DNA of 64,000 nt. It comes from Thiobacillus sp. (GTDB lineage Bacteria; Pseudomonadota; Gammaproteobacteria; Burkholderiales; Thiobacillaceae). The notes beneath the pieces were generated by a model, which did no database searches, had not been told where the DNA came from, and saw only the letters and a list, made by a program, of their open reading frames with translations. Position 1 is the stretch's first letter, and each line of letters starts with the position of its first letter. Positions 51,930 to 59,212 of this stretch are shown one piece after another. Location: positions 101,132-165,131 of the forward strand of contig JACKLQ010000004.1 in assembly GCA_024235835.1 (NCBI GenBank), given 5' to 3'. A program made the translations under genes and the position numbers.

Positions 51930-53231
51930 TTAGGCCGCGGCCTGCTTGCGCTCGAACCACTTCTCGGCCTCCTCGTCCCAGCCGTCGGTGCGGACGTAGG
52001 GGTTGGTGCGGGGATGGATGACCATGTTGGGATCCACTTCCAGGTCCAGACCCTCGAGGAAGTTCACCAGACCGATGCGCTCGATCATCTCGCCGGTGCG
52101 CTCGTGCTCAAGAGCGTTCTCGGCGAAGAAGTCCAGGATGTTCCGGGACAGTTCGTTCAGTTTCTCGAAGTCCTCGTCAGACTCCAACTTCATGAACGGG
52201 ATGATCACGGTGCCCATGGTGGCACCAATCTTCAGCACGCTCTTGCCCCCCACCAGGATGGTGACACCCTTGTCCTTGCCGGGCAGCAGGGCGCCGGGCA
52301 TGACGTTCAGGCAGTGCATGCAACGCACGCAGTTGTGGTTGTCGATCTCCAGACAGTTGGCGTCGGACACGGCCACCTTGGTGATGCCTTCGCCAGCGGC
52401 AGCGCCGTCGTTCTTCACCAAGCGGATGGCACGGGTGGGGCACATGCTCACGACCATGTTGGTCAGGTCTTCCATGCTGTGGGCGGCCATCCAGTCGCGG
52501 GCCATTTTCTCGTCGGCCCGCATGTTGTCGCGCCAGGTGCCGATGGTGGCCATGTCAGAACGCTGGATGGAGTTCACGCAGTCGTTGGGACAGCCGGAGA
52601 ACTTGAACTTGAACTTGTAGGGCAGGGAGGGGCGGTGCATGTCATCAATGTTGTTGTTGATGACAACGCGCAGTGCACGAGCCTCATCGAAGCAGGACAT
52701 TTCGCAACGGGCGGAGCCCACGCAGGACATGGAGGTACGCAGGGCGGGGCCTGCACCACCCAGATCGAAGCCCATCTCGTTGAACTTGTCGAAGGCCTTC
52801 TGCACGTTCTCGGTCTTGATGCCCTGGAACATGATGTCGCCGGACTGGCCGTGAAACGCGATCAGCCCTGAACCACCGGTCTCGAGCCAGCCATCGCACA
52901 GCTGACGCAACAGGTCAGATGTGTAGTGCATGCCGGCGGGAGGAATGATGCGCAGGGTGTGGAACTCGGCGGCTTCGGGAAAGAGGGGCTTGTGGTTCTC
53001 ATCCTTGAGTTCGGTGAAGCGGGGAATAATGCCGCCACCATAGCCCACCACACCAACAGTGCCACCCTTCCAGTAACCGAATCGGGTGTTATAGGAAGTT
53101 TCCAGTTGACCCATCAGGTCAACCATCATGTCATTGTCTTTCGCCAGGCGCTTCAGACCAGTGACGAAGGAAGGCCAAGGGCCCTTCTCCAGATCGTCCA
53201 GGTTGGGCGTGTCGTGCATCTGCTTAGCCAT
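51930..53231 (-). CDS. dsrA: Reverse-type dissimilatory sulfite reductase alpha subunit
   Basis: CVGSARCEMSC ... GCPNDCV siroheme-FeS motif and ferredoxin insert CPTRAI...CVRCMHCLNVMP. AAGGAGA before the ATG at 53231. The oxidative type is inferred from the linked dsrEFH and dsrL. Confidence 0.93.
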   Translation of the reverse strand: MAKQMHDTPNLDDLEKGPWPSFVTGLKRLAKDNDMMVDLMGQLETSYNTRFGYWKGGTVGVVGYGGGIIPRFTELKDENHKPLFPEAAEFHTLRIIPPAGMHYTSDLLRQLCDGWLETGGSGLIAFHGQSGDIMFQGIKTENVQKAFDKFNEMGFDLGGAGPALRTSMSCVGSARCEMSCFDEARALRVVINNNIDDMHRPSLPYKFKFKFSGCPNDCVNSIQRSDMATIGTWRDNMRADEKMARDWMAAHSMEDLTNMVVSMCPTRAIRLVKNDGAAAGEGITKVAVSDANCLEIDNHNCVRCMHCLNVMPGALLPGKDKGVTILVGGKSVLKIGATMGTVIIPFMKLESDEDFEKLNELSRNILDFFAENALEHERTGEMIERIGLVNFLEGLDLEVDPNMVIHPRTNPYVRTDGWDEEAEKWFERKQAAA

Positions 53232-53391
53232 CTGTGTTTCTCCTTGAAGTCTCGAACACGGTGTCGTCACATCCAAACACTTTCCGGCGGCCACTCAGCC
53301 GATTCGGAATACGTGCCAGCATATTAGGGAGCGCTTATCCACGCCACCATCATTCCGATGGAGTAAGTGGGTCTTTCACTCGGGTAATCCC

Positions 53392-53413
53392 CACCTACCC
53401 GAACGGGTAGGTG
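53392..53413. promoter_or_regulatory. Perfect 22-bp palindrome CACCTACCCG-AA-CGGGTAGGTG in the dsrA-divergent promoter region
   Basis: Read directly. It lies 161-182 bp upstream of the dsrA ATG and 79-100 bp upstream of the 53492 ORF. Its right arm overlaps a possible -35 GTGACA for the plus-strand operon. Confidence 0.5.
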
Positions 53414-53491
53414 ACACATCCCCATGCCGGGCATACCTATACCTGAGCAAAAATGTCAGATAATAGGCATATCAACACATACTGATACATT

Positions 53492-53734
53492 ATGGACCTA
53501 CACACTTCAATCGCGAAATTCAGAAATCCTTATGGCAATCAGGAAATCGAATTGCAGGAGGTCCGCTTCGAGGCAGGTGGTACGCCCATGATGCGCCTGC
53601 GGATACGAGAGAGGGGCGCCCGCTTCACCATATTCGACATCGATCCCGTGACCGCCAAATATTGGGCGGACGAGATGCTCAAGTGGGCCACCCCTTTGGC
53701 CTGTCAAACACAGTCAACCGAGCCCGGAGCCTGA
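53492..53734 (+). CDS. Hypothetical 80-aa protein
   Basis: First ORF divergent from dsrA, 3 nt before the Cas6-like gene. No motif recognised. Confidence 0.6.
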   Translation: MDLHTSIAKFRNPYGNQEIELQEVRFEAGGTPMMRLRIRERGARFTIFDIDPVTAKYWADEMLKWATPLACQTQSTEPGA

Positions 53735-53737
53735 CCC

Positions 53738-54388
53738 ATGCGCCTTTTCAGCCCCGAATGGGAGGCCATAAAAGAATTCCAGCACACCGCCAGCGTGCGT
53801 GATGTCCAGTTCGATCTCATGGGCCAGGAACTGCCTGAGGATCACGGCCATATTTTATATGAGACCCTGCTGGTCCACCTGCCTTGGCTGAAGGACATAC
53901 CCGAAGCCGGCATTCACGCCATACATGGCGCCCCTTCCGGTCGAGGCACCCTGATCATCAACCGCCGCGCGAAGCTGGTTCTGCGCCTTCCCATTCTCCG
54001 CCTTGCGGATGCCCGGGTGCTTGTGGATAAGGTCATTGACCTGGGCTGTGGCGTCATCCATATCGGGGGCTTGAAAGAAAAACCCCTGATGCCATTTAAC
54101 TACTTGTATTCCCCCTTGGTGGACATGGGCACGACGGATGAAGCCGTGTTCTTGGCTAGGGTCAGGACCAGCCTGGATGAATTGGGCGTGCAGGGAGGAC
54201 TGATCCCAGGCAAGCAACGTAAAATGCATACCTCGGATGGGGACATCGGCGGCTACAGCCTGATGCTGCATGACGTCACCCTGGCCCATTCCATCACCGT
54301 TCAGGAGAAGGGAATAGGCAGGAACCACTTGATGGGCTGCGGTATTTTCGTGGCGCACAAATCGATCAAGGAAGTAGCGGAGGGCTGA
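53738..54388 (+). CDS. Cas6/Cmx6-like RAMP-superfamily protein (orphan, no CRISPR context)
   Basis: VQFDLMGQELPEDHGHILYETLL...GIHAIHG resembles the Cmx6-type Cas6 N-terminus as I remember it. The C-terminal GIGRNHLMGCGIF fits the RAMP glycine loop G-h-G-x5-G-h-G. That it is a gene is likely; the family call is from memory. Confidence 0.6.
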   Translation: MRLFSPEWEAIKEFQHTASVRDVQFDLMGQELPEDHGHILYETLLVHLPWLKDIPEAGIHAIHGAPSGRGTLIINRRAKLVLRLPILRLADARVLVDKVIDLGCGVIHIGGLKEKPLMPFNYLYSPLVDMGTTDEAVFLARVRTSLDELGVQGGLIPGKQRKMHTSDGDIGGYSLMLHDVTLAHSITVQEKGIGRNHLMGCGIFVAHKSIKEVAEG

Positions 54389-54448: not shown

Positions 54449-54781
54449 ATGGGATACATCGTTAACGGCGAAGAACTGGAAACCGACGAAGAAGGCTTCC
54501 TGACCGAGGCCAATTTCAGTGACGACGTGGTGCCGGTCATCGCCGAGTCCGAAAAGATCGCCCTGACCGACCAGCATTGGCAAGTCGTGAAGTTCATGCG
54601 TGAGCGCTATCAGGAAGACGGGCATACCCCCAACTTCCGCAACATGGTGGCCATGCTGACGGACGAGGATGACAGCGTGGACTGGAAGAAAGTCCTGTAT
54701 GAACTCTTCCCCCTGCAGCCCAACCGCCAGTCCGCCAAGGTGGCCGGCCTGCCCAAGCCCTTCGGCAAGGGCGGCTACTAA
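54449..54781 (+). CDS. DsrC/TusE-family protein lacking both arm cysteines
   Basis: Aligns with DsrC along its length (EEGFL...WQVVKFMRERYQEDG...LYELFP...GLPKP). The arm reads QSAKVAGLPKPFGKGGY, whereas DsrC reads QACKIGGLPKPTGCI. AAGGAG RBS. Confidence 0.85.
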   Translation: MGYIVNGEELETDEEGFLTEANFSDDVVPVIAESEKIALTDQHWQVVKFMRERYQEDGHTPNFRNMVAMLTDEDDSVDWKKVLYELFPLQPNRQSAKVAGLPKPFGKGGY

Positions 54782-57269: not shown

Positions 57270-57953
57270 TCAGTTCCGCTTGCCGTCCAGGCCGGGGCTG
57301 AGCCTGTGCTCCACTGCAAACACCGCCGCCTCCACCCGGGATGACAGGTTCAACTTGGCCAGGATGTGGCGCACGTGGAGCTTCACCGTGTCGTAGCTGA
57401 TGTCCAGCTGGCGGGCGATGGCCTTGTTGCTCTCGCCCCGGGCCAGATGGGTGAGGATCTCCCGCTCCCGTTGGGTCAGGGTCTCCAGCAGGGGCACATC
57501 GCTGTTGCCCTTGTTGTCCAGTAGTTTCACCAGTTTCGCGGTCATGGCGGGGGCCACCACGGTTTCGCCCCTGGCCGCCCGGGCGATGGCGTCCAGCACC
57601 TCGTCCGGCTCCATGCTCTTGAGGAGATAGCCGTTGGCGCCGGAGCGCAGGGCCCGGGCCATGTCCTCTTCCGCCTCGCTCACGGTGAGCATCAGCACGG
57701 GCAGGGTGAACCCCTCGCCCCGCAGTTCCTGCATCACGTTGATGCCGTCCGTCCCTCCCAGATTCAGGTCCAGCAACAGCACATCCGGCCTGTGCTGGCG
57801 CAGCAGGTCGGGCACTGCCTCGGGGTTTCCCGTGATGGCCGCCACGCTTACGGCACCTTCACGCTCCAGCAGCTCCGCCAGGCCCTTGCGGAACAGGGTA
57901 TGGTCATCCACCAGGACGATGTGGAGCACGGTGGACGGGGCGGCTATGGTCAT
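57270..57953 (-). CDS. NarL/FixJ-type response regulator (REC + LuxR HTH)
   Basis: VLVDDH...DVLLLDLNLGG receiver domain. C-terminal LTQREREILTHLARGESNKAIARQLDISYDTVKLHVRHILAKL. Confidence 0.92.
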   Translation of the reverse strand: MTIAAPSTVLHIVLVDDHTLFRKGLAELLEREGAVSVAAITGNPEAVPDLLRQHRPDVLLLDLNLGGTDGINVMQELRGEGFTLPVLMLTVSEAEEDMARALRSGANGYLLKSMEPDEVLDAIARAARGETVVAPAMTAKLVKLLDNKGNSDVPLLETLTQREREILTHLARGESNKAIARQLDISYDTVKLHVRHILAKLNLSSRVEAAVFAVEHRLSPGLDGKRN

Positions 57954-59212
57954 GACTTCTCTTCCACTGCATGGCGTGAGGGGAAGGTAAGACGCACTAT
58001 GGTGCCCCCCGCTGGCCGGCTCTCGATGGAAAGGCGACCGTTCAGCTTGGCGGCCCGTTCCCGCATGATGGTCAGGCCGAAGCTCTTGCCCATGTTGGAA
58101 GTGGCGTTCTGCTGCAGACCCACGCCGTCATCCGCCACGTTCACAACGTACTGGTCGTCCTGAAGGTCCAGGGTTACCACCACGTGACGGGCCCGGGCGT
58201 GCTTGCAGATGTTGTAGAGGGACTCCTGGATGATGTGGTAGACCTGAATCTCGTCTTCGGGGGCCAGCACCACGTCCTGGGCCACGTTCAGGAAGTCCAC
58301 ATCGGCATTGGCCTTCTTGCTGAAGCTCTCGGCCAGTTCCTGCAGGGCCGGCACCAGTCCCCGGGGGTCGATGCGATCCCTGAACTGGGTGATCAGGTTG
58401 CGCAGCTCCGAATAGGCCATGTCCACGGCCTCCTCCACGTCGCCCAGGTAGCGGTTGGCCTTGGCCTCGTCGCCATCCACCATGGCCTCGCTCAACACGG
58501 ACAGGCGCATCTTGGCGTAAGCCAGGGTCTGGGCCAGTGAATCGTGGATCTGGTTGGCCAGCATGGTGCGTTCGTTCATCAGGGAGATACGCATGTTCTC
58601 GCGGGTGAGTCGGCTGTTCTCCAGGGCCATGCCCAAGTGTTCGCTGATGGAGTTGAACAGGTAGCGGATGTCCTCCGGAAGGGGCTCCGGATTGTCCATG
58701 AACAGGTTGTAAACCCCCATTACCTTGCCCTTGTGGCGCATGGGCACGGCGTAGACCGTGCTGCAGTGCTGGGCGTAATACAGATGGCGCACCTGCTTCT
58801 GGCACACCTCCATGACGCCCTCAAAATGGGCGCTTTGCGTCAGAGTAGCCTTGCCGCAGATGCCACATTCCAGGGGGACGTAACGCTCCCGCTCCACCAG
58901 GGCGGGGGCAAGGCCGATGGAACCGGCCAGACGCAGATGGGCCCCATCGGCGGTGAGTACCCGCACTGCACCGGCCCTGGCTCCGGAGATGCGCACCATG
59001 ATCTCCAGGAAGCGCATGAGCATCTGTTCCGTGTTGGCATCGGAGTTCATGCTGCTGGCGATCTCCGCCAGCACCTCGATGACAGGAAGACGATCTCCCT
59101 CGGCTTGCATTCCACCGTCGGGGATGGACGTGCGGCTGATACTGGTGACAGGAATGTTTTGGACGTCCACGAACTGGCTCTGGTGGCTGTGGCGGGTGAG
59201 GCAATTCCACAT
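57950..59212 (-). CDS. Soluble GAF-domain sensor histidine kinase (HisKA_3/NarX-type transmitter)
   Basis: No TM segments. A GAF-like N-terminal half carries C-x2-C-x21-C-x13-C. H-box HDSLAQTLAY and an HATPase_c domain follow. It overlaps the regulator gene by ATGA. Confidence 0.85.
   Translation of the reverse strand: MWNCLTRHSHQSQFVDVQNIPVTSISRTSIPDGGMQAEGDRLPVIEVLAEIASSMNSDANTEQMLMRFLEIMVRISGARAGAVRVLTADGAHLRLAGSIGLAPALVERERYVPLECGICGKATLTQSAHFEGVMEVCQKQVRHLYYAQHCSTVYAVPMRHKGKVMGVYNLFMDNPEPLPEDIRYLFNSISEHLGMALENSRLTRENMRISLMNERTMLANQIHDSLAQTLAYAKMRLSVLSEAMVDGDEAKANRYLGDVEEAVDMAYSELRNLITQFRDRIDPRGLVPALQELAESFSKKANADVDFLNVAQDVVLAPEDEIQVYHIIQESLYNICKHARARHVVVTLDLQDDQYVVNVADDGVGLQQNATSNMGKSFGLTIMRERAAKLNGRLSIESRPAGGTIVRLTFPSRHAVEEKS

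Follow-up and report, generated by a model that had tools for sequence, protein, structure and literature searches.

In a Thiobacillus genome, the intergenic region between dsrA and a divergent operon that begins with a DUF6967 gene contains a conserved palindrome, which we interpret, with a probability of about 0.9, as the operator of a protein binding to double-stranded DNA. The analysis centers on a stretch of 64,000 nucleotides (the window; C4:101132-165131) of this 3.4-Mb genome, which is 98.5% complete; positions given without a contig name are those of the window. A binding site on double-stranded DNA is proposed because the center of the element consists of A/T only, its edges are sharp, and its spacing to neighboring elements is helically phased. 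The ligand is probably the dsr-linked response regulator of the NarL type (57270-57953), an assignment that draws on comparisons of sequences and gene content.

Conservation of the palindrome

The palindrome CACCTACCCG-AA-CGGGTAGGTG is located at 53392-53413 and possesses 10-bp arms with zero mismatches, as a first-pass annotation of the window had reported; its distances to the ATG of dsrA (53231, minus strand; 161-182 bp) and to the ATG at 53492 (79-100 bp) are likewise borne out. Perfection by itself is only mildly unusual: the window contains four perfect palindromes (arms of 10 bp or more, loops up to 6), compared with 0.7 (maximum 3) in Markov controls. The conservation of the element, however, is far beyond chance. 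The core CCTACCCGNNCGGGTAGG, with 16 specified bases, has exactly two occurrences in the genome, against a chance expectation that we estimate at roughly 1e-3. The annotation had noted no second copy in the window, and a scan of the window agrees; but one further copy is present elsewhere in the genome, upstream of apbC.

Conservation upstream of dsrA in relatives had been proposed as a check, and it is found within the Thiobacillaceae and, in variant form, beyond. With at most one mismatch, the core is present in 62 out of 151 family genomes and in 10 out of 15 genera. For 26 of the 30 fetched loci carrying it, the location is the dsrA/DUF6967 intergenic region; three others precede apbC (the second copy of this genome among them), and the last, L004, has no recognized neighbor. 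A further 80 loci in total were examined in public genomes, and nearly all carry the site. Where a Cas6-like match exceeds 43% identity (n = 70), the site occupies the same place in all loci but L052, whose upstream intergenic DNA is missing.

The logo of 67 distinct Thiobacillaceae sites reads A-CCTACCC-G-WW-C-GGGTAGG-T; its positions 1-7 and 12-18 carry 1.4-2.0 bits, the flanks only 0.03-0.3 bits. Its center admits A or T only, and the information profile is dyad-symmetric with sharp edges. The earlier proposal of a control-region element, serving as operator for a dimeric regulator, fits this profile of 67 sites and the position between the divergent dsrA and 53492 promoters. Judging from the logo, the unit under selection is the 20-bp palindrome ACCTACCCG-AA-CGGGTAGGT at 53393-53412, with the heptamers CTACCCG and CGGGTAG around a W-W center. 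The 22-bp perfection is real in the window, but the outermost pair (53392/53413) is not conserved and appears to be one added chance pair. At the same offset, a divergent subgroup of the family carries two imperfect repeats in tandem (CTACTCC-ATTG-CGGTAG; CTACCC-ACATG-GAGTAG). In L106, a metagenome-assembled Thiobacillus genome, a control module consisting of the proximal block and two imperfect palindromes is tandemly duplicated, which results in a dsrA/DUF6967 intergenic region of 542 bp.

Organization of the control region

When 27 dsrA/DUF6967 intergenic regions are aligned, several conserved blocks emerge besides the palindrome, one of them being the ribosome-binding site of dsrA. On the dsrA side, a single half-site, TCGGGTA (53380-53386), would serve as an auxiliary element; its distance to the palindrome center is 20.5-21.5 bp, or two helical turns, and is fixed in 45 of 46 sites. 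It is followed at 53347-53367 by the block CCATCATTCCGATGG, a 5-5-5 inverted repeat centered at 53354, together with the heptamer-like G(G/A)GTAA. This block is 47.5-49.5 bp away from the palindrome center in 65 of 66 sites and, relative to the dsrA start as predicted, occupies a position of about -41. The conserved block CATATTAG, again at a fixed distance (80.5-82.5 bp), includes TAATAT (53326-53321, minus strand), the sole good -10-like box on the dsrA side and hence the predicted -10 hexamer of dsrA. When the conserved -10-like boxes are set to -12 to -7, the dsrA start would be at about 53314, with the palindrome center (53402.5) at about -88.5. A further strongly conserved element, GTGTCGTCAC (53261-53270), falls into the stretch that separates the -10-like box from the ribosome-binding site, within the predicted 5' leader of dsrA.

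On the other side, a promoter of the plus-strand operon is predicted at 53438-53464, where the conserved sequence ATACCYGA...AAAATGTCAGATAAT contains a half-site-like TACCTGA (53440-53446) and a -10-like GATAAT (53459-53464). The corresponding start would be at about 53471 and the palindrome center at about -68.5. The distance between the palindrome and GATAAT falls into three classes, i.e. 56.5-58.5 bp (43 sites), 65.5-67.5 bp (8 sites) and 47.5-48.5 bp (4 sites), which are separated by steps of about one helical turn. Because the spacing changes by one-turn insertions or deletions only, contact between proteins on one face of the DNA is suggested. The -35/-10 pair GTGACA-N17-TACCTA, which the first-pass annotation had considered plausible for the plus-strand operon, could not be maintained: it is not conserved in the alignment and fails a consensus scan, and the conserved -10-like boxes lie elsewhere. 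An inverted repeat, CTGA-N9-TCAG, or more fully CTGA(C/G)-N-GTCAG, is conserved at 53443-53459. It overlaps the spacer and the -10 of the promoter predicted for the plus-strand operon and could be an operator in its own right, e.g. for a repressor.

Other copies and variants of the motif

The second core copy, CCCCTACCCGGACGGGTAGGAA at C1:1549286-1549307, precedes the ATG of apbC, a gene for an Fe-S cluster carrier, by 146 bp. Six other Thiobacillus genomes share an apbC-linked site with this one. In the four loci inspected, the distance between it and a conserved ATTTTA, which reads TAAAAT on the strand of apbC, is exactly 22 nt, so that the site would be centered at about -43.5 of the predicted promoter. 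A Lys/Ala/Pro-rich open reading frame of 244 aa (L002 1530-2264) stops 8 nt short of this palindrome; it has no family match, and its C-terminus, ...CWKDGRLDVCE, is kept in relatives.

A candidate third site, TATCCCCAATGGGTAGG at C1:1560692 between a cytochrome-peroxidase-like and a methyltransferase-like gene, was rejected, as it is not conserved in the genus. The genome further contains a second dsrA copy (C1:974060-975349, 83% identical) without the palindrome upstream. This copy has kept a -10-like box, the block CCATGATTAGCC and TCGGGTA, and the similarity stops before the palindrome, as if the operator had been lost at the duplication boundary. A homolog of the kinase core is located at C1:967333, about 6 kb away from it. 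At C1:805849-805870 (L235, about 6350), about 70 bp upstream of an operon of cytochrome c, NapA-like, NapG-like and NapH-like genes, CACTACCC-ACAAGG-GGGTAGTG can be read as a 7-2-7 form of canonical span, TACCCAC-AA-GGGGGTA; it may belong to a nitrate-type NarL paralog or to the dsr-linked regulator.

In the other families of the order, all 20 loci carry a variant of the form CTACCC-N4/5-G(G/A)GT(A/T) in the dsrA/DUF6967 intergenic region. Beyond the order, it is usually a TauD-like gene that diverges from dsrA. At the class level, the pattern TA[CT]CC-N4-8-GG[AG]TA occurs upstream of dsrA in 18 out of 35 regions, as opposed to 0.25 expected from shuffles; the typical form is (C/T)TATCCC-NNNN-GGGATA(T/G). 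A related proximal block, ATCCTTCCGATGG / CCCTACCYATGG, is found class-wide at 36-37 bp from the palindrome, one turn less than the 47-49 bp observed here. The two halves diverge between families, where CTACCC is combined with GGGTTA, TAACCC with GGGTAA, TATCCC with GGGGTA, and TACCCC with GGGATA.

Co-occurrence of the motif and candidate binding proteins

The site shares its architecture with operators of the NarL/FixJ family: two inverted heptamers with a short fixed spacer and dyad-symmetric conservation (CTACCCG-WW-CGGGTAG), together with a gene for a REC and GerE regulator that is linked to the target and co-occurs with the site. The consensus of the NarL heptamer is TACYYMT. The half-sites TACCCGA, TACCCAC, TACTCCA and TATCCCG resemble it, with TACCC in common and positions 6-7 being different. 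The candidate regulator, a NarL/LuxR-family response regulator with REC and GerE helix-turn-helix domains, is encoded at 57270-57953 on the minus strand and scores 212.7 bits with the NCBIfam NarL model, which is under the cut-off of 250. Its recognition helix, TVKLHVRH, resembles that of NarL. In the Thiobacillaceae this helix reads ISYDTVKLHVRH (ISYD...RH), in other Gammaproteobacteria ISDGTVKLHVKA (ISDG...KA). The change seems to parallel that of the operator (CTACCCG versus TATCCCN), a weak indication given that it represents a single evolutionary contrast.

The partner gene at 57950-59212, also on the minus strand, encodes a putatively cognate, soluble GAF-HisKA_3 histidine kinase. Homologs covering the GAF domain are found in 100 out of 120 DsrA-positive genomes of the class, but only in 16 out of 279 DsrA-negative ones; several of these 16 genomes are incomplete and belong to DsrA-positive genera. 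Where kinase and dsrA share a contig, the start of the kinase is 12.7-17 kb away from dsrA in 51 of 56 cases. All 12 class genomes inspected show the order dsrN-dsrR-kinase-regulator on the dsr strand, with regulator homologs that are 45-51% identical; in Allochromatium vinosum, the pair comes after dsrR/dsrS. The motif upstream of dsrA is present in 27 out of 37 kinase-positive genomes and in 2 out of 17 kinase-negative ones (Fisher p = 3e-5, with relatives not being independent); in the latter two, the kinase is cut by a contig end or the assembly is fragmented. In three genomes with two dsrA copies, the motif occurs at the kinase-linked copy only. The class-level kinase homologs possess about 130-150 additional N-terminal residues.

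The first-pass annotation had named three proteins that might recognize the palindrome, and the comparative data single out the NarL-type regulator, since the motif tracks the kinase/regulator pair. The Cas6-like protein and the Cys-less DsrC paralog were rejected as binders, as both are present beside dsrA in genomes that lack the motif. The Cas6-like gene is found in 10/10 motif-positive and 10/10 motif-negative genomes, adjacent to dsrA in the latter; the divergent operon includes the Cys-less DsrC paralog in 8/8 genomes with the motif and in 6/8 without it. The DUF6967 protein (PF22295) was discarded because it is not found in 10 out of 10 motif-positive, mostly closed genomes, with a positive control of 5/5. 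The form TACCC-N4-GGGTA also suggested an operator of the CsoR/CstR type (ATACCC-N-GGGTAT type), a candidate abandoned since the genome contains no PF02583 protein, while the control search returned matches in six reference genomes.

Weighing the interpretations

Several observations weigh against assigning the site to the NarL-type regulator. The span from TAC to GTA is 14 bp in the Thiobacillaceae and 15-16 bp elsewhere, compared with 16 bp in the 7-2-7 NarL sites of Escherichia coli, and the distance between the half-sites differs by 1-2 bp from family to family, an unusual feature for a rigid dimer. Ten of the 37 kinase-positive genomes have no match to the motif pattern, and the kinase/regulator pair lies within 6 kb of the site in only about 24 out of 80 Thiobacillaceae loci. 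Within this family, the regulator ortholog, the Cas6-like gene and the motif variants are nearly universal, which renders a within-family test powerless. Co-occurrence among related genomes is a correlation, and another gene traveling with the pair could account for it. Moreover, a scan of the region for sigma-70 consensus promoters gave none, and neither -10-like box is accompanied by a -35 consensus, although the missing -35 would fit activator-dependent promoters. The identity of the protein at the palindrome, the sign of regulation and the transcription starts are inferred, and all promoter positions are predictions from conserved -10-like boxes.

The evidence of conservation, symmetry and spacing would equally serve an operator bound by a different factor, be it some other regulator, the Cys-less DsrC paralog or DUF6967; we regard this as possible, but rather unlikely. 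DsrC reportedly binds dsr promoter DNA in Allochromatium. Yet the Cys-less paralog occurs with and without the motif, and canonical DsrC is part of every dsr cluster. DUF6967 heads the divergent operon, the modeled topology of its product is like that of PUR, Whirly and PC4 proteins, and a purine-rich GGGTAGG is found on each strand of the site; its absence from the ten motif-positive genomes and its weak fold matches speak against it, just as the lack of a CsoR/CstR-family protein in the genome does for that class of regulators.

The palindrome could also act as RNA, folded into a hairpin within a long leader of the divergent operon or, as the annotation had considered, of dsrA, and recognized or cut by the orphan Cas6-like protein. 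If transcribed, it would form a stable 9-10-bp stem with a 4-nt loop at -17 to -25 kcal/mol, with z about -3 at the dsr site, the Cas6/Cmx6-like gene, without an array of clustered regularly interspaced short palindromic repeats, is encoded 325 bp from the palindrome, and loop variation between N4 and N5 is easier to reconcile with a hairpin than with a rigid dimer. Against this, the two halves vary independently: each variant within the family is changed on one side only and disrupts pairing on one strand or the other, the halves diverge separately in other families, and there are no compensatory changes, so that pairing is not what is conserved and the data do not support an RNA hairpin. In both directions, a conserved -10-like box is located downstream of the palindrome, an Rfam search of the palindrome gave no match, the copy at apbC has no Cas6 context at all, and the two genomic copies are not arrayed. 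Given in addition the Cas6-like gene beside dsrA in all ten motif-lacking genomes, we consider this explanation very improbable. The least credible of all is the absence of any specific function, the palindrome being due to chance, a terminator or a repeat of the repetitive extragenic palindrome type. Perfect palindromes are, as seen above, not very rare in the window, and the apbC copy closely follows a stop codon. But a terminator is contradicted by the lack of a T-run and of any terminator-like site at 53200-53520 and by the location between divergent starts, a dispersed repeat by just two copies in 3.4 Mb, and all three by a conservation that extends over several families and keeps the site at fixed places between the divergent starts.

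Proposed mechanism and comparison with known systems

According to the model of a NarL-type operator, the soluble, Cys-containing GAF kinase would phosphorylate the regulator, and the phosphorylated dimer would bind the palindrome as two inverted heptamers around two A/T pairs. The single heptamers at 53380-53386, 53360-53366 and 53440-53446 would be auxiliary to this site. The regulator would control dsrA (site at about -88) and the operon of DUF6967, Cas6-like and DsrC-like genes (about -68) from promoters without a -35 consensus, and in a subclade of Thiobacillus also apbC (about -43). Activation through contact with RNA polymerase seems more likely than repression. The GAF domain contains two cysteines that are invariant across the class, Cys119 and Cys137, plus a CxxC motif in Thiobacillus or a CxC motif in others, which suggests a thiol, persulfide or metal-based sensor; that a sulfur or redox signal acts on these cysteines is a guess. 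A far more ambitious combination, in which the oxidative Dsr pathway of Gammaproteobacteria in general has its master switch in the pair and the site, the cysteines sense sulfane sulfur directly, and the Thiobacillus site is additionally transcribed from an upstream start and processed as RNA by the Cas6-like protein, strikes us as very improbable.

Soluble GAF HisKA_3 kinases are known from DosS/DosT of Mycobacterium tuberculosis, in which GAF binds haem and senses O2, NO and CO, and the partner DosR (DevR), likewise of the NarL family, recognizes a Dev box of the GGGACT-N-AGTCCC type. The similarity extends to a G/C-rich palindrome of 20 bp upstream of the targets, but the Dev box is unrelated in sequence, and the conserved feature of the GAF domain here is three cysteines. 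In NreBC of Staphylococcus, which controls nitrate and nitrite reduction, the PAS domain of NreB carries an Fe-S cluster and the NreC box is TAGGG-N4-CCCTA. Again, a cytoplasmic Cys-dependent kinase works with a regulator of the NarL family, and the site is a G/C palindrome of 5-N4-5 form with TA on its flanks, yet with opposite half-site polarity (TAGGG there, TACCC here). LuxR and TraR are ligand-binding solo regulators and not phosphorylated response regulators; their class II lux-box sites, palindromes of 18-20 bp near -42/-44 over the -35, resemble what is predicted for the apbC copy, whereas the dsr copy is located much further upstream.

Further close parallels are the NarL/NarP sites of E. 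coli, e.g. at ogt and yeaR, which are also inverted heptamers (TAC...GTA) with a 2-bp separation and additional single heptamers. They are bound by a dimer of a REC and GerE response regulator, which activates promoters with a poor -35 (PMC7419079), and the 7-2-7 repeats of NarL, apart from single heptamers, are centered at -44.5, -67.5 and -77.5 (PMC7419079). The positions predicted here, -43.5, -68.5 (-78.5 in one clade) and about -78 to -88, are near those of NarL (PMC7419079). The class-level dsr form, TATCCCN-NN-NGGGATA, has the same 16-bp span as the E. coli sites. Differences exist in the heptamer CTACCCG and the 14-bp span of the Thiobacillaceae, in the kinase, which is a soluble GAF protein and not membrane-bound like NarX/NarQ, and in the targets, which belong to sulfur oxidation and not to nitrate respiration.

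Genomic context

The gene dsrA (51930-53231, minus strand), with NIR_SIR domains according to Pfam, is the first gene of dsrABEFHCMKLJOPNR, the presumed target operon; orthologs with 83-93% identity adjoin the site in all loci. The second presumed target, the plus-strand operon divergent from dsrA, consists of DUF6967 (53492-53734), the Cas6/Cmx6-like gene (53738-54388), the Cys-less DsrC paralog (54449-54781) and, up to 57259, a two-domain rhodanese, an unnamed open reading frame and a TauD-like gene; its synteny is found in more than 100 loci. The kinase and regulator genes converge on this operon. Outside the order (loci L219-L232), the operon divergent from dsrA consists of TauD-like, Cas6-like and Cys-less DsrC-like genes, the latter with the C-terminus ...AGLPESRRKGGY. 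In the Thiobacillaceae, the TauD-like gene is now at the end of the operon and DUF6967 at the front, the invariant core being the pair of Cas6-like and DsrC-like genes. DUF6967 is confined to part of the dsr-carrying lineages, and a literature search found no paper on it. The AlphaFold model of this protein of 80 aa (predicted local distance difference test, pLDDT, 88) shows four antiparallel strands and a long helix; its best PDB matches, the PUR repeats of Pur-alpha, Whirly and a bacterial PC4 homolog, are weak (template modeling scores of 0.5-0.6, E at least 0.07), and the protein may be a single-strand nucleic-acid binder.

Significance

The dsr genes are induced by reduced sulfur, but we know of no account of how the reverse Dsr pathway is switched on in sulfur oxidizers. 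Our full-text literature searches found no description of a transcription factor, an operator or a dsr-linked two-component system for these genes. The palindrome no longer explains what the orphan Cas6-like protein recognizes. Instead, the analysis provides a defined 20-bp operator together with a named candidate regulator and sensor kinase for dsr, and this candidate pair is found in or beside the dsr clusters of about 100 out of 120 sampled Gammaproteobacteria that carry dsrA. The minimal predicted regulon would comprise dsr, the accessory operon with the Cas6-like and DsrC-like genes and, in some Thiobacillus, apbC.

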